Positions 7,419 to 49,503 are shown, numbered from the stretch's first letter. The stretch is 64,000 bases of DNA from an uncultured bacterium (GCA_937958885.1 CALGMT010000026.1:32468-96467), one strand, 5' to 3'. Program-made: numbers and translations. The notes: a model not told the origin generated them from the sequence alone.

Positions 7419-8307
7419 ATCCAACTCAGCGGACGCGCCGAGCTGGTCCGACTACTATCAGCTCGCCAAGCCGCGCATCGTCGGCATGGTGCTGGTCACC
7501 ACCGCCACAGGCTTCTTCGTCGGCGGCGCGGGCATCGGATCCTGGGAGCGCACCCTCCTGCTCGTCCTGACCCTCCTCGGCACTGCCCTCGCCGCCGCGG
7601 GCGCAGCGGTTCTAAACAACTACCTCGAGCGCGACACCGACGCGCGCATGGAGCGCACCCGCCTGCGCGCCCTGCCCGCGGGCCGCATCGAGCCCGCCGT
7701 CGCGCTCGCGCTCGGTGTCCTGCTCGTCCTCGGGGGCGTCGCGATACTCGCGGCGCTGGTCAATCTTCTCGCCGCCTTTCTCGTCCTGCTCACGGCGTTT
7801 CTCTACGTGCTTGTGTACACGCCGCTCAAAAAAGTGACCTGGCTCAATACGCCGATCGGCGCGATCCCCGGCGCGTTGCCGCCGATGGTGGGGTGGGCGG
7901 CCGCCGCGAACGAACTGCATGTTGGCGCATGGATTCTGTTTGCCATTCTCTTTCTCTGGCAGCACCCCCACTTCTACGCCATTGCGTGGATGTACCGCAG
8001 CGACTACGCCGCCGCCGGCTACAAGATGCTCTCAACCATCGACCCCACCGGGCGCCGCGTCTTCCGTCAGGCCATCCTCTTCTCCCTCGCGCTGATCCCT
8101 GTATCCATTGCCCTCACCGGCTTCGGCCTCGCGGGCCGGACCTACCTCGTCGGCGCTGTATTCCTCGGATCGGCCTTGCTTGCCGCCAGCTTGCACCTCG
8201 CCCAGCACCAGCGCCTGGCCGACGCGCGCCGCGTTCTGCTCGCCTCCGTCGTCTATTTGCCCCTTCTACTCGCCCTCATCGTGCTCGACGCCGGACTCGC
8301 CCGCTGA
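7396..8307 (+). CDS. ctaB: Protoheme IX farnesyltransferase (heme O synthase)
   Basis: UbiA-family prenyltransferase pattern (YYQLAKPRI..., multiple TM helices); linked to the oxidase operon. Confidence 0.85.
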   Translation: MKLPRRTKSNSADAPSWSDYYQLAKPRIVGMVLVTTATGFFVGGAGIGSWERTLLLVLTLLGTALAAAGAAVLNNYLERDTDARMERTRLRALPAGRIEPAVALALGVLLVLGGVAILAALVNLLAAFLVLLTAFLYVLVYTPLKKVTWLNTPIGAIPGALPPMVGWAAAANELHVGAWILFAILFLWQHPHFYAIAWMYRSDYAAAGYKMLSTIDPTGRRVFRQAILFSLALIPVSIALTGFGLAGRTYLVGAVFLGSALLAASLHLAQHQRLADARRVLLASVVYLPLLLALIVLDAGLAR

Positions 8308-8318
8308 CGGCAAAAAAG

Positions 8319-8374
8319 TTCCATGCTCTGTAAAAACTTTTTTTCGCGCTTCCATACTCTGTAAATTACAGCGC
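8319..8374 (+). repeat. Two tandem copies (31-bp period) of the dispersed motif TTCCATGCTCTGTAAAAA
   Basis: Copy 1 at 8319-8336 (exact); copy 2 at 8350-8365 (TTCCATACTCTGTAAA). Lies immediately upstream of the ATG at 8375. Confidence 0.8.
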
Positions 8375-10150
8375 ATGGAAATAATAAGGAGACGCGCGCG
8401 CGGGCTGCTGGTCTTCGCGCTTCTCGCCGCGGGCTGTGCGGAAGCGCCGCGCGACGGCGATATCCTCCGCGCAAACACCCTCTATCTCGCATCGGCGCGT
8501 GTGCGGGGATTCGATCCCGCTAAAGTGTCGGATGTCGCGTCTGCCAAAGCCATCCAGCTCGTGTATGAACCGCTGCTGCAGATCGCGTATCTCGACCGCC
8601 CGTACCGCCTCCAACCGCTGCTTGTGGAATCAATGCCGGAGCGCTCAGGAGACGGCCTGCGCTACCTCTTTCGACTTCGACGCGGCATTTATTTCGCCGA
8701 CGCCCCCTGCTTCCCCGGCGGGCGGGGTCGCGAAATGACCGCGGACGATGTTGTCTATTCGATCAAGCGCATCGCCGATCGCAAGGTCGCTTCCAGCGGA
8801 TGGTGGGCGTTCGAAAACCGTATCGTCGGACTCGATGAATTCCGAGAGGCATCGGCGGGCGAGCAGCCGACGGACTATTCGATGCCCGTCGCGGGACTTG
8901 TCGCACGCGATCGATACACCGTGGAAATCGAGCTGGCCCGACCGTTCCCGCAATTTCTTTGGATTCTTGCGCTGCATTACGCCGCCGTCGTCCCGCGCGA
9001 AGCGGTGGAGCATTATGGCGAACGATTCGCAAGCCATCCGGTCGGCACCGGACCTTATCGCCTCGTGGAGTGGCGTCGCAATTACCGGATGATGTTCGAG
9101 CGCAATCCGAAGTGGAGCGAAACCGGACGGATTGATCGTTATCCTTCGTCAGGCGAGCCGGAAGATGAAGCCGCCGGCTTGCTTGCCGATGCCGACCGCC
9201 CGCTGCCGCTGATCGATCGCATCGTCATGTCCGTGATTGCGGATGGCGCAACGCAGTGGATGATGTTTCTCCGCGGGGAATTGGACGAGTCGGAGATTTC
9301 GCGCGACAACTGGGGCGCGGTTATGGATGAGAATGGCGCATTGCGCGCCGATCTCGCCGCGCGCGGCATCCGGCTTTCCGTCGCGCCGCAATTGCGCGTG
9401 AACTACATCGGGTTCAACATGGACGATCCGGTCGTCGGTCCGAATCGCGCGCTCCGGCAGGCGCTCACGTCGGCCTTCAACTCGGAGGAGTGGATTCGCC
9501 TCAACAACGGGCGCGTGAAGCGCGCGCTTGGACCCATTCCAAGTTCGTTGACGGGCTTCGAGCCGAATTATCAGCCATTCCCATTTGATTTGGATCGCGC
9601 GCGGGCGCTGCTCGCAGAGGCCGGCTATCCGGACGGCCGCGATCCGCGCACCGGACGCCGGCTCGAACTGACACTAGAGCTCGGGCGGGCCGACGATCTG
9701 GAGCTGCGCCAATCCGCGGAGCTCATCGCCGCCTTTTTCGAGCGCATCGGCGTGGTCCTGCGTTTGAGCTTCAACAACGGCCCTGCGTTTTTCGAGAAAC
9801 TCGAGCGCGGCCAAGCGCAATTGTTTTATGTCGGTTGGCTCGGCGATTACCCCGATGCCGAGAATTTTCTCCAATGTCTCTACGGCCCGAATGCCGATGG
9901 TGGCCCTAATCGCGCGAACTATCGAAACCCCGAATTCGATCGCCTCTTCGAGCAAGCCCGTGTGATGGAAGATTCGCCGGAGCGGACGGCCCTCTATTCG
10001 GCCCTCGCGCGAATCGCGATCGAAGACTGCCCATGGATCTTTGTCGCCGAACCGTTGAGCTACACGCTGCACCAGACGCGGCTGCTCAATCGCAAGCCTC
10101 ATCTGTTCCCGTATGGAATGGAGAAATACTATGCCCTCCGGCGCCCCTGA
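8375..10150 (+). CDS. ABC transporter substrate-binding protein, family 5 (oligopeptide/dipeptide/nickel type), lipoprotein
   Basis: ORF 8108..10150 with ATG at 8375 (MEIIRRRARGLLVFALLAAGCA lipobox); SBP_bac_5-like sequence throughout. Confidence 0.8.
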   Translation: MEIIRRRARGLLVFALLAAGCAEAPRDGDILRANTLYLASARVRGFDPAKVSDVASAKAIQLVYEPLLQIAYLDRPYRLQPLLVESMPERSGDGLRYLFRLRRGIYFADAPCFPGGRGREMTADDVVYSIKRIADRKVASSGWWAFENRIVGLDEFREASAGEQPTDYSMPVAGLVARDRYTVEIELARPFPQFLWILALHYAAVVPREAVEHYGERFASHPVGTGPYRLVEWRRNYRMMFERNPKWSETGRIDRYPSSGEPEDEAAGLLADADRPLPLIDRIVMSVIADGATQWMMFLRGELDESEISRDNWGAVMDENGALRADLAARGIRLSVAPQLRVNYIGFNMDDPVVGPNRALRQALTSAFNSEEWIRLNNGRVKRALGPIPSSLTGFEPNYQPFPFDLDRARALLAEAGYPDGRDPRTGRRLELTLELGRADDLELRQSAELIAAFFERIGVVLRLSFNNGPAFFEKLERGQAQLFYVGWLGDYPDAENFLQCLYGPNADGGPNRANYRNPEFDRLFEQARVMEDSPERTALYSALARIAIEDCPWIFVAEPLSYTLHQTRLLNRKPHLFPYGMEKYYALRRP

Positions 10151-11108
10151 CGCCACGCCCGCGCTGCTGAAGGTCGAGAACCTTTCGATCCATTTCGGGA
10201 CGGAAGCGCGCCCGGTCCGCGCGGTGGACGATGTTTCGTTTGAGGTGCGAGAGGGTGAAACGGTCGCGCTGGTCGGCGAGAGCGGGTGCGGCAAGAGCGC
10301 AACCGCGCTCGCGTTGGCACGCCTGTTGCCGGAGCCCGCCGCGCGCTACGTCGGCGGCTCGATCCGGCTGCTCGGCACGGACGTGCTGCGCGCGGATGAA
10401 GCGGAACTTTGCCGCCTGCGGGGCGGGCGAATCGCTTATGTGTTCCAAGAACCCGCGGTCGCTCTGAATCCGGTGTACACGATCGGATTTCAAATTCGCG
10501 AAGCCCTTGCCGCGCATCGATCCGGGATCGACCGCGCCGCCGAATGCGCCCGATTGCTGAGCGAAGTCGGATTGGATGCCCCCCGCGTCGCGGGAGCGTA
10601 TCCGCACGAATTGAGCGGCGGCATGCAGCAGCGCGCGGTCATCGCCATGGCGCTGGCCGGGAACCCGCGCCTGCTCGTGGCCGACGAACCGACCACCGCG
10701 CTCGACGTGACCGTTCAGGCGCAGGTGTTGGATGTGCTTGTCCGTGTGCAGCGCGCTGAGCGCGCGAGCATGCTGTTCATCACGCATAACCTGGGGTTGG
10801 TCGAGCGCATCGCCCAGCGCGTGTTGGTGATGTATGCCGGCCGCATTGTAGAGACCGGGCCGGTCGAGGACGTGCTGCGGCGACCGCGCCATCCCTACAC
10901 CCGCGCGTTGATCCGAGCGGTGCCGCGCCTGCGCGGAGGCGCCGCGCGGCTCGAGGGGATCCCTGGCGTGGTGCCGTCTGCAGCGGAATATCCGTCCGGA
11001 TGTCGATTCCATCCTCGGTGTGCGCATAAGCGAGCGCGCTGCGAAACGGATGAACCGGAAGACGACGATGGCGTGCGTTGTCACTTTTGGCGGGAGCTAC
11101 CGGCATGA
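10113..11108 (+). CDS. ABC transporter ATP-binding protein (OppD/DppD-like) with C-terminal oligopeptide-transporter extension
   Basis: Walker A GESGCGKS, LSGGMQQR signature, Walker B LLVADEPTTALD; alternative start at 10132. Confidence 0.85.
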   Translation: MEWRNTMPSGAPDATPALLKVENLSIHFGTEARPVRAVDDVSFEVREGETVALVGESGCGKSATALALARLLPEPAARYVGGSIRLLGTDVLRADEAELCRLRGGRIAYVFQEPAVALNPVYTIGFQIREALAAHRSGIDRAAECARLLSEVGLDAPRVAGAYPHELSGGMQQRAVIAMALAGNPRLLVADEPTTALDVTVQAQVLDVLVRVQRAERASMLFITHNLGLVERIAQRVLVMYAGRIVETGPVEDVLRRPRHPYTRALIRAVPRLRGGAARLEGIPGVVPSAAEYPSGCRFHPRCAHKRARCETDEPEDDDGVRCHFWRELPA

Positions 11109-11887
11109 ACAATGATCCCGCGCAAATTTCGGTTGATGCGCTGTCCGTCCTTTACCGCCGCGGGGGCCACACGGTTCGCGCGCTGGACAACGTTTCGTTG
11201 GCGATACACGGCGGCGAGGCCGTCGGCATTGTGGGAGAAAGCGGGAGCGGGAAAACGACGATGGCCCGCGTGCTGACGGGCTTGGTATCGCCCACGACGG
11301 GCTCGGCGCGCATCGAGGGCCGTACGATTGCCGACTGGCTTCGGTCGGATCCTATGCGTTTTCGACGGCGGGTGCAGATGATTTTTCAAGATCCATACGG
11401 TTCATTAAATCCGCGATTGACCGTGCGCCAAACCTTGGCGGAGGCGCTGCAGGTCCACCGCATCGTTCCGCGCGGCGCGGAGGGCGAGCGGATCGTCGAA
11501 CTGATGCGCGCGGTTGGGCTGGACCCATCGTATGCGGATCGCTATCCGCATGAATTCAGCGGCGGCCAGCGGCAACGGATCGGGATCGCGCGCGCGCTGG
11601 CGGTGGATCCGGCGATCTTGATTGCAGATGAACCGGTATCCGCGCTGGACGTATCGGTGCAGGCGCAGGTGTTGAATGTGTTGCGCGACCTGCACGCCGC
11701 GCGCGGCTTGACGCTGGTGCTGATCGCCCACGATCTTGCGGCTGTTCGGTACGTGTGCCGGCGAATTATCGTAATGCATCGCGGCCGGATCGTGGAAGAG
11801 GGAACGTCCGATGCGATCTGCGAAAATCCACGCGATGATTACACGCGTCAGTTACTCGCCGCTGTCCCCTCGCTCGGCGTGCAATAG
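11105..11887 (+). CDS. ABC transporter ATP-binding protein (OppF/DppF-like)
   Basis: Walker A GESGSGKT, FSGGQRQR signature, LIADEPVSALD; ATGA overlap with the previous gene. Confidence 0.85.
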   Translation: MNNDPAQISVDALSVLYRRGGHTVRALDNVSLAIHGGEAVGIVGESGSGKTTMARVLTGLVSPTTGSARIEGRTIADWLRSDPMRFRRRVQMIFQDPYGSLNPRLTVRQTLAEALQVHRIVPRGAEGERIVELMRAVGLDPSYADRYPHEFSGGQRQRIGIARALAVDPAILIADEPVSALDVSVQAQVLNVLRDLHAARGLTLVLIAHDLAAVRYVCRRIIVMHRGRIVEEGTSDAICENPRDDYTRQLLAAVPSLGVQ

Positions 11888-11928
11888 CGCGTGCCTGTCG
11901 TCCATTCGAGCGGCTGCGCCTAGTTGCG

Positions 11929-12855
11929 CTAGGGCATTGGATGCTTCAGGAAAAAATCCCACATCATGTCGTTCGCGGAAATGTCTCGCGTGCTGATACC
12001 CAGCTTTTTCGGATGTTCATTCTGGCCCGGCCAGGTATGTCCGCCGCCTTCGATCAGAATGAGGATCACCTCGGATCCTTGTCGCCCGCCGGCGTAGACC
12101 TTGCGGATCACCCGCGTTCCATCGGCCGCTTTGTCCGGCAGCGCTTCCACAATCGGCTCTTCTTTGCAACCGTTGGCGTTCACCCACGCGCGAATCGAGT
12201 ATTCGACGGAGATGAAGTCAGTTCCCGAGACCCCTTTCCCGACGCCACCGCCCAAGGGAAGATTCTCATCGGCGGTGCCGTGAAAATGAATAATGGGCAC
12301 AGGTCTTTTTGCATGAATCTTGGTCAACCCCATCGTCCCGGCCACCGGAGCGATGGCTGCGATCCGGTCAGCGAGTTCTGACGCGAGACGGTACGTCATC
12401 ATGCCTCCGTTGGACATGCCTGTTGCATAAATGCGCTTGGGGTCGATGTTCAATAGCGTCTCAAGTTCATTCAAGATGCGGCGCGTGAATGCAACGTCGT
12501 CGATCTTCTTATGCATCGCATAGCCGCAACAATTTCCGGCATTGAAGGTCAGTAGAGACGGCAAACGCCCCGCGCCGGACGGATAGACGACGATAAACCC
12601 GGCTTGATCCGATTTCTCATTGAGTCCGCTGAATGAGACCATCCGCTTCGCATTGCCGCCGCCTCCGTGAAACGCGAGAAGCACAGGGGTTGGCTTTGCC
12701 GGATCATAGGATGGCGGAATGTGGAGGAGATAGCTTCGTCGCATGCCATCGCTGACGATGGCACGAGTATGATCGCCCGGCCCCAGCACGGGCTCGCTAT
12801 GCGCGAAAGGATGCCAGCAGACCAGAATGCCCAGCGCGATTAACAATCGTATCAC
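11929..12855 (-). CDS. Secreted esterase of the poly(3-hydroxybutyrate) depolymerase / LpqC-like family
   Basis: Signal peptide; HGGGG oxyanion-type motif; GMSNGG nucleophile elbow (GxSxG). Confidence 0.6.
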   Translation of the reverse strand: MIRLLIALGILVCWHPFAHSEPVLGPGDHTRAIVSDGMRRSYLLHIPPSYDPAKPTPVLLAFHGGGGNAKRMVSFSGLNEKSDQAGFIVVYPSGAGRLPSLLTFNAGNCCGYAMHKKIDDVAFTRRILNELETLLNIDPKRIYATGMSNGGMMTYRLASELADRIAAIAPVAGTMGLTKIHAKRPVPIIHFHGTADENLPLGGGVGKGVSGTDFISVEYSIRAWVNANGCKEEPIVEALPDKAADGTRVIRKVYAGGRQGSEVILILIEGGGHTWPGQNEHPKKLGISTRDISANDMMWDFFLKHPMP

Positions 12856-13036
12856 GATCGACCCTCATATGTTCACGTCGATATCGAATGGGCCGCTCAA
12901 TCCATGTCGTGTTGCATGGCTTCACTTCATCAAACAACGCGGCGGGAGCCCAATTATTATTAGCCCGCATGCAAATTTTTGACGAAGCTGACGTGCGACC
13001 AGTCGGAACTGGATTTGAGGGCTGCGCAACGCGGTT

Positions 13037-13777
13037 TTACGTACCGGCGCGTGTGAAGGCGGCGATGCAGGGGGTGCCGAAGCGGCGGGTCAGACCGAGC
13101 CGGTCGGGGATCCACTCGAGGGCTTCGGATAGCGCGACGCGCTTGAGGGCGCGGTGCAGTACCATGGGGCAGATAAATTGTCCCGTCCGCCCGGCGGGCG
13201 CGAAGCCGGCCGCCGCGAATGCGCCCGCGACCTCTGCGTGTGTGAAATTGCGCCACGTGCGGGTGTTTTTTTCCAGCTTGCGCTTGGCGGAGAAGAGCCA
13301 CGGCGCTAGCGCGTTGAGCCCGCTTTTCACCGGATAATCCACAACGACCACCGTTCGCGCGACGCGGGCGCATTCTCGAATCAACTGCGGCCAGCGCGTG
13401 CAGTGCGGCAGCAGGCGCACCGTGACCACCGCATCGAACGATCGGTCGGGGAAGGGCAGGGCGACCACGCTGCCGACGATGAACCGGCAGCGGCCGGCGG
13501 CAACGAGGTCGGCGATACGCTCGGCGCAGACCGATTCGCTGCCCAGGACGGTGACCTCATAGCCCGCCGCCGCGAGCGGACGCGCGAGCTGTCCGTGGCC
13601 GCCGCCGACGTCCAGCACCGTTCGCGCGCCCGCGGCGCGCAAGCGCTCGAGCACGAGGCGTTCCTGACGCGCGAGCATCCACGCGCCGATGGGGCCTGCG
13701 AAGCGCGCGGCATAGGAGGCGGATGCGGTCTCAACATCGGCCAGTTCCGGCCCGTGTGATTCGCGGTCGTCATTCAT
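13037..13777 (-). CDS. Class I SAM-dependent methyltransferase
   Basis: ORF 13037..13900; the true start is probably the ATG at 13777 (MNDDRE...), because the upstream part of the ORF reads through the dispersed 23-bp repeats. VLDVGGGHG SAM-binding motif. Confidence 0.75.
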   Translation of the reverse strand: MNDDRESHGPELADVETASASYAARFAGPIGAWMLARQERLVLERLRAAGARTVLDVGGGHGQLARPLAAAGYEVTVLGSESVCAERIADLVAAGRCRFIVGSVVALPFPDRSFDAVVTVRLLPHCTRWPQLIRECARVARTVVVVDYPVKSGLNALAPWLFSAKRKLEKNTRTWRNFTHAEVAGAFAAAGFAPAGRTGQFICPMVLHRALKRVALSEALEWIPDRLGLTRRFGTPCIAAFTRAGT

Positions 13778-13798
13778 CCCCGCGCACGATGTCAAAAG

Positions 13799-13847
13799 TT
13801 CCATGCTCTGTAAAAACTTTGTTGGAAAGTTCCATGCTCTGTAAAAA
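13799..13847 (+). repeat. Two tandem exact copies (31-bp period) of TTCCATGCTCTGTAAAAA
   Basis: Copies at 13799-13816 and 13830-13847. Located in the divergent intergenic region between the methyltransferase and the GDPD gene. Confidence 0.85.
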
Positions 13848-13930
13848 ATTGTTCGCGGCCGGCCCTGATGTAGCGACGAGCGGGATCGGAGGGGACCCAT
13901 GCGCAGACCGCGTCGTTGATTGACGAAGAC

Positions 13931-14260
13931 AGCCTTGTAATTCCGCCGCTCTGCCGGCGGAAGTGCAGGGCCGATGACCTCCGGCGACCGCGCGCCGGAG
14001 CTACAGCAGTGCCGCAGCGTCGGCTGAAATTGCTAAAAAAGTGTCAGACCGCGTCATTTATAGACCTGCGACGGCTCTGTTCGTATGTCTCTCCGTATCT
14101 GTTCATGCTCTCATCTCATCTCGCATCAAGTCCAAGTGCACATACGTAGGGACTAACGCCACTGCCCCGACCCAGTTGGCATCCCGACGTTAACATTCAT
14201 CGTTTGACCCCTTTTGGTCTACGACGTTAACATTCATCGTTTGACCCCTTTTGGTCTACA
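13931..14260 (+). repeat. Copy A of a ~330-bp conserved non-coding element (candidate structured RNA / cis-regulatory leader); its 37-bp tail is tandemly duplicated
   Basis: About 85% identical over ~320 bp to the reverse complement of 28113-28440. The tail ACGACGTTAACATTCATCGTTTGACCCCTTTTGGTCT occurs twice (about 14186-14222 and 14223-14259). Oriented toward the GDPD start at 14309. Coordinates are approximate (+/-10 bp). Confidence 0.7.
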
Positions 14261-14308
14261 AGGGGGGGGTGGACGGGCGGGCTCGAGTTGAGTAGGCTAC
14301 TCCATTCA

Positions 14309-15061
14309 ATGAAAATTATTGCGCATCGCGGGGCCTCGCAGGAGGCGCCGGAGAATACGCTGTCGTCGGTTCACCTGGCGTGGCAGGAAAAGGCCGACGG
14401 GGTCGAGGTCGATGTGCGAATGACGGCCGATGGAAAGGTCGTCCTGCTGCACGATTCGAATACGATGCGCACGACCCGGCACTCGATGGAGGTGGCCGAT
14501 CAGACATGGGATGCGATCCGTCTACTAGACGCGGGGAGCTGGAAAAGCCCGCGCTTTCGGCTCTCGACGATTCCGCTGCTGCGGGATATTTTGAAAATGC
14601 TGCCGCCGGGCCGGCAGATGTGGATTGAAATCAAGTGCGGCGCGGAGATCATACCGGCGTTGCAGCGCGACTTGGATGTGCAGCGGCTGCCGCCGCAATC
14701 GATCGGTTTCCTCGGATTTAGTGCGCATGTGATGGGGCAGGTGAAGCGCGCGTTTCCCAAACATCCGGTGTTTCTCAATGTCGAGGCGCAGGGCCGGATC
14801 GGCGCGCCGCAGCCGTGGACAGCAGAAGTGATGGTTGACGCGGTTCGAAAAAACATGCTCGACGGATTGAGCGTCGGCCTGTCGGATGCCGTGGATGAGG
14901 CGTTCATTGCGCGGATTCGGCACGAGGGACTTGGATTGATGGGCTGGGTGTCGGACGACGAACACGTCGCGTTGCGCCTCGCGCGCGCGGGGCTTCCCGC
15001 GCTGATGACAAACCGGCCGGCGTATATCCGGCATCGGTTGCGCGCGCACGGGGCGCTATGA
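14309..15061 (+). CDS. Glycerophosphodiester phosphodiesterase (GDPD family)
   Basis: IAHRGAS..ENT and E.D...T.DG..V..HD motifs of GDPD. Confidence 0.8.
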   Translation: MKIIAHRGASQEAPENTLSSVHLAWQEKADGVEVDVRMTADGKVVLLHDSNTMRTTRHSMEVADQTWDAIRLLDAGSWKSPRFRLSTIPLLRDILKMLPPGRQMWIEIKCGAEIIPALQRDLDVQRLPPQSIGFLGFSAHVMGQVKRAFPKHPVFLNVEAQGRIGAPQPWTAEVMVDAVRKNMLDGLSVGLSDAVDEAFIARIRHEGLGLMGWVSDDEHVALRLARAGLPALMTNRPAYIRHRLRAHGAL

Positions 15062-31057: not shown

Positions 31058-31170
31058 GCGGGAGGGGGAGGGGGAGGGAGAGGGAGAGGGAGAGGGAGCG
31101 GGAGCGGGAGAGGGAGAGCGAGAGGGAGAGGGAGAGGGAGAGCGAGAGGGAGGAAGAGCGAGGGAGAGGG
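31058..31170. repeat. Homopurine hexanucleotide microsatellite (GGGAGA/GGGAGC/GCGAGA), about 19 units
   Basis: Read directly: ~113 bp of G/A with occasional C, hexamer period. Lies between the convergent zwf and rubredoxin genes. Confidence 0.9.
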
Positions 31171-31173
31171 CAT

Positions 31174-31253
31174 TTCCATGCTCTGTAAAAACTTTTTTAA
31201 GAACTTCCATGCTCTGTAAAAAATTAATTTGCGGCTTCCATGCTCTGTAAAAA
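31174..31253 (+). repeat. Three tandem exact copies (31-bp period) of TTCCATGCTCTGTAAAAA
   Basis: Copies start at 31174, 31205 and 31236; directly follows the hexanucleotide tract. Confidence 0.9.
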
Positions 31254-31274
31254 ATTTGTTTGCCGCGCGCGCCG

Positions 31275-31463
31275 TCAAAACGGCTCGAAGGCTTTCTTGA
31301 GCGCGAGGCAAAGAGGGCAGACCCAGCCGTCGGGCAGCGCCTGGAACGGTGTGCCGGGCGCGATGCCGTGTTCGGGATCGCCCATTTGCGGGTCGTACAC
31401 ATACCCGCAGCAGGTGCAGACCCAACGCTCCGCCGTAACCGGGGTTTCGTCTTTCGTTGTCAT
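31275..31463 (-). CDS. Rubredoxin
   Basis: [12 protein letters not shown] and GWVCPLC motifs; probable start at the internal ATG (MTTKDE...). Confidence 0.85.
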
Positions 31464-31524
31464 GGCTTCGGCACCATAATACAAGACGCGCGCGGGTCAA
31501 GCGATCCCAGGGAGAAAAGGTCCG

Positions 31525-48111: not shown

Positions 48112-49401
48112 TCAAAGGCTCACATAGCGGAAGCCCAGCTTGCGCGCCTGGTCGCGGTTGAAGAAGTGCTTCGCATCCACGATCACCGGCGTGCGGCAGA
48201 CCTTCCGAAGGCGGGCGAGCGTGAGCGGCTTGTACGCGTCGTGCTTGTTGATCAGGACGATCGCGTCGATGTCGCGCGCCTGCTGCGGTGTGACGGTTTC
48301 GATATCGAATTTCCGTTTGAGCGTCTCGGGCTCGCCGAGCGGCTCCCACGTCGTCACGTTGCAGCCGAAGCCGCGCAGGTAGGCGACCACATCCTCCGCG
48401 CGCGAGTTGCGGAAATCCGGCACGTTCTCCTTGAAGGTCATGCCGAGAATCCAGACGTTCGCGTTCTTCGGCAGACGGCCCGCCGCGATCATCTCGCGGA
48501 TGCACAGCTCGCCGACGTACGAACCCATCGAATCGTTGATGCGCCGTCCCGCGAGGATCACTTCCGGATGATAGCCCAGCATCAGCGCGCGATGCGTGAG
48601 ATAATACGGGTCCACGCCGATGCAGTGGCCGCCGACAAGACCGGGATGGTATTTGTGGAAGTTCCATTTCGTGCCCGCCGCCTCGATCACCTCGTGCGTG
48701 TCGATCCCGATCCGCGCGAAAATTTTCGACAGCTCGTTCATCAACGCGATGTTCAGATCGCGCTGCACGTTTTCGATCACCTTCGCCGCCTCGGCCGTTT
48801 TGATGTTCGACGCGGGATGCACGCCCGCCTTTACGATCGAGCGATAAAGCGCGGCACAGCGCTGGAGGGCCTTCGCGTTGTGGCCGCTGACGATCTTGAT
48901 CACGTTCGTGACGGTGTGCTCTTTGTCGCCCGGATTCACGCGCTCCGGCGAATAGGCGAGGTCGAACTCGCCGAGCTTCAGGCCGGAATGCTTTTCCAGC
49001 AGCGGCAGACAGACATCTTCGGTGACGCCCGGATAGACGGTGCTTTCATACACCACCATCGTTCCGCGCCGCATCACCTTGCCGATCATTTCGGAGGAGC
49101 GGATCAGGGGATCGAGGTCCGGCTCCTTCGCGATGTTCACCGGGGTCGGCACGGCGACGATGATCGTCGTGCAGCGCGCGAGGTCCTGAGGGTCGCTCGT
49201 AAAGTGCAGGTTCGGATGCTTGAGGTCTTTCGGATCCGCCTCGCCCGTGTGATCGCGGCCCGCGCGCAACTCGTCCACACGAACCGGACGAATGTCATAG
49301 CCCACGACCTCGGTTAATTTGGAAAACGCGACGGCCAGGGGCATCCCCACGTAGCCGAGGCCGACCACTCCGACGATTTCACGCCGCGCCGACTTCGCCA
49401 T
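48112..49401 (-). CDS. Nucleotide-sugar 6-dehydrogenase (UDP-glucose/UDP-GlcNAc dehydrogenase family)
   Basis: N-terminal GLGYVGMPLA Rossmann motif; central catalytic-Cys region (GGHCIGVDP); start at ATG 49401. Confidence 0.85.
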   Translation of the reverse strand: MAKSARREIVGVVGLGYVGMPLAVAFSKLTEVVGYDIRPVRVDELRAGRDHTGEADPKDLKHPNLHFTSDPQDLARCTTIIVAVPTPVNIAKEPDLDPLIRSSEMIGKVMRRGTMVVYESTVYPGVTEDVCLPLLEKHSGLKLGEFDLAYSPERVNPGDKEHTVTNVIKIVSGHNAKALQRCAALYRSIVKAGVHPASNIKTAEAAKVIENVQRDLNIALMNELSKIFARIGIDTHEVIEAAGTKWNFHKYHPGLVGGHCIGVDPYYLTHRALMLGYHPEVILAGRRINDSMGSYVGELCIREMIAAGRLPKNANVWILGMTFKENVPDFRNSRAEDVVAYLRGFGCNVTTWEPLGEPETLKRKFDIETVTPQQARDIDAIVLINKHDAYKPLTLARLRKVCRTPVIVDAKHFFNRDQARKLGFRYVSL

Positions 49402-49452: not shown

Positions 49453-49503
49453 CAATTTACAGCGGATGGAAGTCCGCGGAAACTCTTTTTACATCGGATG
49501 GAA
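49453..49503 (-). repeat. Two degenerate copies (32-bp period, minus orientation) of the TTCCAT..TGTAAA motif
   Basis: Minus-strand reading: TTCCATCCGATGTAAAAAG and TTCCATCCGCTGTAAATTG. Located 50-100 bp upstream of the dehydrogenase start. Confidence 0.6.

Follow-up and report, generated by a model that had tools for sequence, protein, structure and literature searches.

Helically phased arrays of a 15-bp pseudo-palindrome in Kiritimatiellia DNA and in phages: possible operators

The stretch of DNA considered here, called the window throughout, comprises 64,000 nucleotides from an uncultured bacterium (GCA_937958885.1 CALGMT010000026.1:32468-96467), and our subject is a short pseudo-palindrome that recurs in it in four small arrays. 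The Kiritimatiellota are a widespread phylum of the Planctomycetes-Verrucomicrobia-Chlamydiae (PVC) group, polysaccharide degraders known mostly from metagenome-assembled genomes (MAGs). The closest named homologues of the window's proteins are in MAGs of Kiritimatiellae/Kiritimatiellia, and the window is a piece of a Kiritimatiellia MAG. Its G+C content is about 62%, and its genes are those of an ordinary chromosome (a cluster for alternative complex III and cytochrome oxidase, LptD, type II/IV secretion ATPases, G6PD, ThyA, DHFR, CorA and PhoH). An initial annotation had described the element as an 18-mer in four spaced arrays, all intergenic, and had supposed it to be either an arrayed binding site or something like the repetitive extragenic palindromes (REPs).

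When both strands were searched for the 18-mer TTCCATGCTCTGTAAAAA with up to three mismatches, eight matches were found: six exact copies on the plus strand (at 8319, 13799, 13830, 31174, 31205 and 31236), and copies with three mismatches at 8350 (plus) and 49486 (minus). None of 100 dinucleotide-preserving shuffles gave any match. A looser search added a second minus-strand copy (49456-49471, TTCCATCCGCTGTAAA) and then, as the tenth in all after six exact and three degenerate ones, an inverted minus-strand copy at 8366-8380 (TTCCATGCGCTGTAA). Copies are 31 bp apart in all three plus-strand arrays and 32 bp apart in the minus-strand array, and Tandem Repeats Finder called a 31-bp period at 31174-31263. 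The four arrays and their 31-32 bp spacing are thus as first described, and so is their intergenic position: 10 of the 11 zero-mismatch 15-mer sites are in non-coding DNA, which makes up only about 12.5% of the window (the split between coding and non-coding DNA being taken from an approximate gene map). The 'translations' of the motif, rightly called artefacts at the outset, are products of long spurious open reading frames (ORFs). A single zero-mismatch 15-mer (Table 1) lies about 30 nt upstream of the start (27049) of a pfkB-family kinase gene. It stands alone, nothing matching it 31 bp to either side, and could be there by chance.

The first array precedes the gene for a solute-binding protein (SBP) of the Opp/Dpp/Nik type, which is followed only by two ABC ATPase genes (10113-11887). 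Two copies had been annotated here; both are present, but the inverted third copy, which overlaps the SBP start codon, had been overlooked. The proximal unit is therefore a composite, in which a forward site (8350-8364, TTCCATACTCTGTAA) and an inverted site (8366-8380, TTACAGCGCATGGAA) are separated by one base. Its centre, CTGTAAATTACAG, includes a -10-like TAAATT (TACCTT in lineages with the TTCCAA half-site described below), and the SBP ATG (8375-8377) falls inside the inverted site, within its CATGGAA. This ATG is also the start given by the gene caller (P0001, 591 aa, 100% identical), and no Shine-Dalgarno sequence precedes it. Gene-proximal copies terminate in TGTAAATT or TGTAAAGT (TAnnnT, -10-like), 6-8 nt before the SBP ATG, and distal copies terminate in AAAAA. 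A replication origin at about 8-9 kb, where the GC skew has its minimum, was considered and rejected: the skew follows genes for membrane proteins (COX, UbiA), and the intergenic gap is 67 bp.

The second array is 22 bp from the start (13777) of a methyltransferase gene (13037-13777, minus) and about 460 bp from a GDPD gene. The non-coding stretch of about 530 bp between them (13778-14308) has no Rfam match; a perfect 37-bp x 2 tandem repeat (CGACGTTAACATTCATCGTTTGACCCCTTTTGGTCTA, 14185-14259), some 50 bp ahead of the GDPD gene, holds a sigma-70-like match (TTGACC-18-TAACAT). The fourth array begins 12 nt after the stop (49516) of a 100-aa ORF and lies 54 nt before the ATG (49401) of a dehydrogenase gene. 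The third, with three copies, is flanked by convergent G6PD and rubredoxin (minus) genes and is not upstream of any gene; to its left are G6PD, 160 bp, and then (GAGGGA)18. Its units 2 and 3 are identical at 27/31 positions, which suggests that they arose by tandem duplication. In four relatives, the PNP gene directly follows G6PD and the segment 30901-31524 (about 620 bp: spacer, microsatellite, array and the rubredoxin gene, 31275-31484, minus) is absent, so this segment is a lineage-specific insertion and the three-copy array is not ancestral. The earlier statement that three of the four arrays lie upstream of a gene was correct, but it should be added that the remaining one, the three-copy array, sits between convergent genes in DNA that was recently inserted, and that orientation with respect to the gene is variable. 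The microsatellite is an imperfect (GAGGGA)n of about 18 units (31062-31170; Tandem Repeats Finder score 144) that abuts the array, and a 2.9-kb Logan contig with an identical G6PD gene stops about 190 bp past the G6PD stop, just inside this repeat.

Table 1. Positions of motif copies in the window and of the two genes with conserved arrays
Feature	Position	Strand	Context or sequence
SBP array, distal site TTCCATGCTCTGTAAAAA	8319-8336	+	11 nt after UbiA stop (8307)
SBP array, proximal composite	8350-8380	.	31-bp palindrome TTCCATACTCTGTAA-A-TTACAGCGCATGGAA
SBP_bac_5 lipoprotein gene (Opp/Dpp/Nik-type)	8375-10150	+	Protein starts MEIIRRRARGLLVFALLAAGC
Two exact copies, 31 bp apart	13799-13816, 13830-13847	+	Methyltransferase/GDPD region
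Single zero-mismatch 15-mer TTCCATAGCGTGTAA	27079-27093	+	In 3' end of minus-strand gene
Three exact copies	31174, 31205, 31236 (array 31174-31253)	+	Between microsatellite and rubredoxin 3' end
Two degenerate copies, 32 bp apart	49486-49503 TTCCATCCGATGTAAAAA, 49454-49471 TTCCATCCGCTGTAAATT	-	Upstream of dehydrogenase
Nucleotide-sugar (UDP-GalNAc/ManNAc-type) dehydrogenase gene	48112-49401	-	Second conserved array target

Comparison of all the window copies with those of relatives defines the unit as a 15-bp pseudo-palindrome, TTCCAW-N3-WTGGAA (6-3-6), often lengthened to about 19 bp by Ts on its left and As on its right, (TTT)TTCCAW-N3-WTGGAA(AAA). In the window's own lineage the right arm is usually CTGTAA instead of ATGGAA (TTCCAT-GCT-CTGTAA), which makes the site asymmetric there. 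The arms are otherwise invariant, and it is the N3 centres (GCT, ACT, CCG, GCC, GGC, CGA, GGG and CCC were recorded) and the spacers that differ from locus to locus. Between lineages the half-site switches on both arms, TTCCAT...ATGGAA in some corresponding to TTCCAA...TTGGAA in others.

The SBP array is shared with relatives over a considerable range (loci in other assemblies and contigs are given L numbers). In the orthologous loci L069 (86% amino acid identity in the SBP), L070/L071 (84%) and L072 (79%), there are two direct sites 31 bp apart, and the inverted site over an in-frame ATG is also kept; the distal site is identical in L069, with variants TTCCACAGCATGTAAAAA in L070 and TTCCATGCTCTGGAAAAA in L072. 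The farther orthologues in L122 (73%; GCA_039807095.1, a Kiritimatiellia MAG) and L123 (70%) have three and four sites, respectively, at 32 bp, built on the half-site TTCCAA...TTGGAA and with a matching composite proximal unit, TTCCAACGTCTGTACCTTACGAGTTTTGGAA. The composite layout was found in six lineages, and its best-conserved part is an inner palindrome, CTGTA-N3-TACAG (CTGTAAATTACAG or CTGTACCTTACAG; window 8357-8372, about 9972-9986 in L122 and L123), which is kept where the outer arms become TTCCAA/TTGGAA and which may serve another factor, distinct from the first. The gene upstream of the array varies among relatives (UbiA, TamB, SecG) while the array stays, so the array belongs to the 5' region of the SBP gene. 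Compared with the window copy, the 62-bp array is 98% identical in L069, where the coding flanks are 73-79% and the SBP third codon positions 54% identical; the corresponding figures are 75%, 66-71% and 50% in L070, and 79%, 52-53% and 43% in L072. Judged from these identities, the SBP array is under purifying selection. The window and L069-L072 lack permease genes; BPD_transp_1 permease genes follow the SBP gene in L122 and L123. Between the SBP and permease genes of L122 (11770-12640) there is a gene for a 160-aa Y1 transposase (RAYT-like, with a weak match to PF01797), on both sides of which are GC-rich REP hairpins (GTAGCCGCGGTCGTTGACCGCGG...GACCGCCCTCAGCGAGGGCGGCTACAG) unrelated to the motif studied here.

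The dehydrogenase array, too, has counterparts at orthologous loci. Two sites 32 bp apart retain their position in L118/L119 (86% identity in the dehydrogenase), and L120/L121 (77%) have diverged variant sites, TTCAACGTCTGCAAA / TGCAACGTCTGTAAT; in L117 (90%) the sites have decayed. Elements resembling the inner palindrome of the SBP composite (CTGTTCATTACAG, CTGTAATTTACAG) come after the dehydrogenase arrays in the window and L120, and upstream of the variant array in L120 is a different short tandem repeat, GGTCATTCCGTCATTCGTCATTGGTCATTCCGTCATTGGTCATTTCC (9830-9905).

Other arrays came to light in the loci of relatives without being sought. Two reverse-oriented sites occupy the 56-bp purL-purQ spacer of L117, and two perfect palindromes, which make up a third conserved array, lie in the interval between aconitase and a small zinc-ribbon gene (L124-L127; four assemblies, two lineages). 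With about three such non-targeted arrays per 190 kb or so, the density is very roughly one per 60 kb, which suggests, as an equally rough estimate, tens of arrays per Kiritimatiellia genome. Orientation to the downstream gene is not fixed, the arrays at purQ of L117 and at the methyltransferase gene of the window being reversed, which a DNA site can tolerate and an RNA signal cannot. A 17-mer scan of genome contigs gave, among the matches listed, only single chance matches in unrelated genomes, and a metagenome scan with the exact tandem pattern gave none. A degenerate metagenome scan gave mostly chance matches in low-GC DNA, but some contigs look related (L083, L091, L081 and perhaps L077, L112 and L087), among them multi-site arrays upstream of an RNase-J-like gene (L083) and between mtnA and ddl (L091). 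Contigs L095, L109 and L104 were rejected as 31-32 bp minisatellites in ORF-poor DNA, probably unrelated, and L139, from a viral scan, as a 33-nt coding repeat.

Scans of IMG/VR revealed arrays of the motif in viral contigs of 51-61% G+C, one of which (L132) codes for terminase, portal, protease and major head proteins. The phage arrays occupy short spacers between structural genes (in L131, one is separated by 7 nt from the preceding stop and by 12 nt from the following ATG), and also coding DNA: L133 has a pair of sites inside a 2549-aa ORF, and a tail-fibre-like ORF of L132 (13804-14979) contains four, at 14358, 14390, 14421 and 14452 (spacing 32/31/31 bp; span 14358-14466). These four fall in three reading frames (SNDWK, VQWLEG, SNDWT, FQRLES) and leave the ORF intact, which points to a constraint at the level of the nucleic acid, independent of the protein sequence. 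The downstream part of this ORF has long 'SNLATEAATRLA'-type protein repeats. The array-bearing phages probably infect the Kiritimatiellia clade. Three array-bearing viral contigs also encode a helix-turn-helix (HTH) protein of 62-69 aa (LGVSxxHLWxVLxGxR; L130 2920-3114, L134 9000-9185 and L145 8684-8893, all on the minus strand), which has only sub-threshold similarity, to NUMOD-like PF22083, and no homologue in the host loci examined. It is possible that this is a phage-side binder of the arrays, or else a marker of one phage family.

Distances of up to 100 bp between neighbouring sites were collected from the credible loci (63 sites in 271 kb of host loci, 29 in 74 kb of phage loci). In host DNA they are 16 bp (three cases, the composite), 20-24 bp (seven), 30-32 bp (20), 38 and 60 bp; in phages they are 19, 22, 31-32 (11 cases), 41 and 63 bp. 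Apart from the composite, these are close to two, three, four or six turns of B-DNA, and the spacers, although unrelated in sequence between arrays, are fixed in length. Distances in whole turns are characteristic of proteins that occupy a single face of the DNA, and the claim that the window copies are three turns apart on one face is supported by the 31-32 bp of the window and by the whole-turn distances of the relatives.

What might the arrays be for? In the interpretation that we consider somewhat better than evenly probable, they are operator-type sites in double-stranded DNA for a putative dimeric regulator that would bind cooperatively on one face. This would account for the invariant arms and their joint switch, the whole-turn spacing, the conservation above that of the flanks, the attachment to gene 5' ends, the free orientation and the sites in coding DNA. 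We infer the binding of a protein, its cooperativity and the sign of regulation at the arrays from sequence patterns. The binder might be a global or nucleoid-associated regulator of Kiritimatiellia, probably dimeric; with two to four sites set at distances of two, three or four turns, in most cases 31-32 bp, the bound dimers would lie on one side of the DNA, where they could touch, bind cooperatively, and bend or wrap the DNA. As the arrays take up short spacers immediately ahead of genes, occupancy would be expected to repress or gate initiation of downstream transcription, and repression of initiation seems most likely at the SBP gene, because the proximal composite covers both the -10-like TAAATT and the start codon.

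Among known systems, the operator arrays of the Lrp/AsnC family (BarR, Ss-LrpB, E. coli Lrp) are alike in having semi-palindromic sites, in clusters of two to five imperfect copies, with centres two or three turns apart on one face (20-24 and 30-32 bp dominate here); a global regulon is a feature of that family, and the opp peptide transporter is among the targets of E. coli Lrp. In Lrp-family targets, semi-palindromic sites of 13-15 bp are clustered at intervals of two or three helical turns (PMC2995911), and BarR binds 4-5 sites of 15 bp at regular intervals, with 15-17 bp between them (PMC10201364), which is also the geometry found here. The half-site sequence, however, is unrelated to known Lrp sites, the centres are G+C-rich (GCT, GCC, CGA, GGG) where those of Lrp-type sites are A+T-rich, and tblastn with E. 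coli Lrp and AsnC (approximate queries) against 800 kb of locus DNA gave no match. Because of the G+C-rich centres and the lack of an Lrp gene in these 800 kb, membership of the family is not established and only the layout is shared.

These last two points, the second of them a weak one, also tell against operators for a regulator of the kind we favour, and there are others that do so. No regulator gene adjoins the arrays in the window, L083, L112 or L077, and the genes that do adjoin arrays are functionally disparate (peptide/nickel-type SBP, sugar dehydrogenase, purQ, ddl/mtnA, RNase-J-like, methyltransferase). The recently inserted three-copy array has no gene to regulate. No sigma-70-like promoter was found at the scanned window arrays: a consensus scan from 8000 to 14500, a range that includes the two left-hand arrays, gave neither a sigma-70-like nor a terminator-like site at them (canonical GC-hairpin/T-run terminators occur elsewhere in the clade, and an intrinsic-terminator role was rejected). 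Several arrays start 2-14 nt past a stop codon between co-directional genes, positions that are also REP-like. The centres of neighbouring sites are correlated, being identical in about 11 arrays, as direct duplication would leave them, and reverse-complementary in five, where they give very stable hairpins. Simple dimer binding does not account for this correlation, which could come from local duplication, gene conversion, quasipalindrome correction or selection for a hairpin. Finally, an array pair of phage L131 corresponds in position to a GC-rich hairpin in the related L132.

Several of these observations are just what would be expected of the main rival explanation, which we consider unlikely: a REPIN/REP-like palindrome that spreads or duplicates in the intergenic DNA of host and phage, with a hairpin role (as a 3'-end stabiliser, attenuator or cruciform) and with a spacing that merely reflects the unit copied. 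The correlated centres, the positions just past stops, the three copies inserted beside a microsatellite between convergent genes, the hairpin that replaces an array pair in L132 and the six identical 18-mers of the window all fit it, and in other lineages some neighbouring sites are exact reverse complements, centre included (GGG/CCC, GCC/GGC, CCG/CGG, AGG/CCT), giving perfect stems of 15-17 bp (-28 kcal/mol, z -6.6, in L126; -33.9, z -5.6, in L131; -20.7, z -3.6, in L118). Folded as RNA on either strand, however, the window arrays at 13790, 31168 and 49445 gained nothing over shuffles (z +1.2 to -1.4; +1.2 and +1.0 for 13799-13847), and among window arrays only the SBP composite folds (z -3.8, minus strand). 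Arrays of the window type consist of direct repeats whose palindrome is broken, yet they are conserved above their coding flanks, and conservation extends to the TGTAA arm, whose asymmetry disrupts the hairpin. Moreover, spacer length is fixed while spacer sequence is unrelated, spacings of about 21, 41 and 62 bp occur as well, arrays are kept at orthologous loci over 70-86% amino acid identity and move with the downstream gene, and some are within intact coding regions. The REP/BIME/REPIN families are comparable in being short intergenic palindromes, often just after stops, in singlets, doublets and sharply spaced clusters, with inverted doublets able to form long hairpins. The window copies differ from them in being direct, unstructured and A+T-rich, with unconserved spacers and deep orthologous conservation. 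A hairpin in each unit is found only in the palindromic inverted pairs elsewhere, no conserved linker is present, and there is no RAYT, Y1 or other transposase gene near any array, the RAYT-flanked REPs of L122 being GC-rich and unrelated. Of the two possibilities put forward in the initial annotation, then, a binding-site array gains indirect support from several independent sides (the orthologous arrays, the conserved arms with their joint switch, and the helical spacing); the REP-like half does not suit the window copies, which show no structure beyond shuffles, are direct repeats and are unlike the REPs of L122. A hairpin or REPIN-like role may nevertheless apply to the perfectly palindromic inverted pairs of other lineages, and if the palindrome did spread in this way, the arrays would be an unusual REPIN-like family.

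Less probable still is that the sites serve a nucleoid-organising or partition-type protein with no regulatory role (ParB/Noc/KorB-like or architectural), in the chromosome and in phages. The absence of a common function among the neighbouring genes, the presence of arrays in phage genomes, coding regions included, and the A/T tracts beside sites laid out in phase, which suit bending, are in keeping with such a protein, and a ParB_N-like gene lies near the L145 array (a weak match, E = 0.02). Against it, arrays keep their link with the 5' ends of certain genes when the surroundings are rearranged, the SBP composite is specialised and overlaps a start codon, the site resembles neither parS nor the Noc-binding site (NBS), and pairs to quadruplets are found rather than single sites. 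We think it quite improbable that the motif is a tandem promoter element (a high-information promoter read by an alternative sigma factor, or else an UP/-10 module) common to host and phage genes: although the TAnnnT ends of the proximal copies shortly before an SBP ATG that lacks a Shine-Dalgarno sequence, and the location in short spacers right upstream of genes, as with phage promoters, could be so explained, the sites have palindromic symmetry and are found in both orientations relative to the gene, the TTCCAA-type arrays have no -10-like hexamer, the scanned arrays have no sigma-70-like match, and tandem copies and copies in coding DNA are left unexplained. An RNA-level role, as sites in 5' untranslated or intercistronic RNA for a translational regulator, or as a hairpin hiding a GGA-type ribosome-binding site, would agree with the frequent placement of ATGGAA/TTGGAA beside a start codon (SBP; purQ, 2 nt away; L122) and with the ability of palindromic versions to fold, but can hardly be right, as orientation to transcription is mixed, helical-turn spacing is meaningless for RNA, loops are not conserved, and the window copies are unstructured, the whole window having no Rfam match at gathering thresholds.

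If the sites are operators for a dimeric regulator, are they of a known kind? NrdR boxes are promoter palindromes of 16 bp that come in tandem pairs, at 31-32 bp, and are the sites of an oligomerising repressor. The likeness is in the 31-32 bp pairing alone: NrdR boxes have the consensus acaCwAtATaTwGtgt and occur only upstream of ribonucleotide reductase genes, whereas the sequence here is different and none of the neighbouring genes (SBP, dehydrogenase, methyltransferase, rubredoxin) is an nrd gene. The iterons of phages and plasmids, such as those of the lambda origin inside gene O, are dyad-symmetric sites of about 19 bp at fixed spacing, in some cases within coding DNA, whose bound dimers wrap the DNA, and the four-site array inside the tail-fibre-like gene of L132 is reminiscent of them; here, however, there are many dispersed chromosomal arrays at gene starts, without an adjacent A+T-rich unwinding region or initiator gene. 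In the IclR/AllR family, tandem same-face sites are common, mostly 18-22 bp apart, and the half-sites of IclR (TGGAAATNATTTCCA) and AllR (KTTGGAAWAWTWTTCCAAC) have the same letters as those here (PMC8222616), but in the opposite order (TTGGAA...TTCCAA, in the TGGAAA...TTTCCA orientation, as against TTCCAA-N3-TTGGAA). These are usually local regulators encoded beside their targets; no such gene is found here, and the spacing is mostly 31-32 bp.

Other candidates were rejected. DnaA boxes (TTWTNCACA) are asymmetric 9-mers; TTTTCCA fits positions 1-7 in some copies, but positions 8-9 (CA) are matched only in L083 and L081, and the sites here are palindromic pairs. CueR/MerR sites have an equal TTCC-N7-GGAA spacing but are single, between -35 and -10. 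Sigma-54 -24/-12, extracytoplasmic-function-type and Bacteroidetes-type -33/-7 promoters, LexA, HexR, TyrR, BirA, LacI/GalR, parS/NBS, integron attC, and Tn7- or Mu-type transposon-end arrays fail on sequence or spacing. In full-text searches we found no description of this motif, nor of any regulatory motif or global regulator for Kiritimatiellota, and nothing relevant on TTCCAT/ATGGAA operators or on the AllR site string.

The motif is probably a regulatory one that is ordinary in kind but had not been described before. A more far-reaching proposition, speculative though not negligible, is that there is a clade-wide code of phased palindromes in chromosomes and phages, read at tens of unrelated promoters by a wrapping protein outside the Lrp, NrdR and IclR families, in which a half-site can double as a start codon and phages have copied arrays (even in coding DNA) to plug into the host circuit; or that REPIN-like palindromes have been domesticated as operators. 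The arrays are easily recognised, information-rich, conserved across the class and present in phages. They offer a direct route to the binding protein, by DNA pull-down or by matching the T/A half-site switch to a recognition helix, could help to define a regulon from metagenomes alone, and could possibly link uncultured phages to Kiritimatiellia hosts.

In the metagenomic contig L081 (1.2 kb, 50% G+C), 12 sites (TTCCATACTGTGGAA and variants) are crowded into about 275 bp (900-1175), in both orientations and 19-30 bp apart; the cluster might be a control region that is very strong or that resembles an origin.

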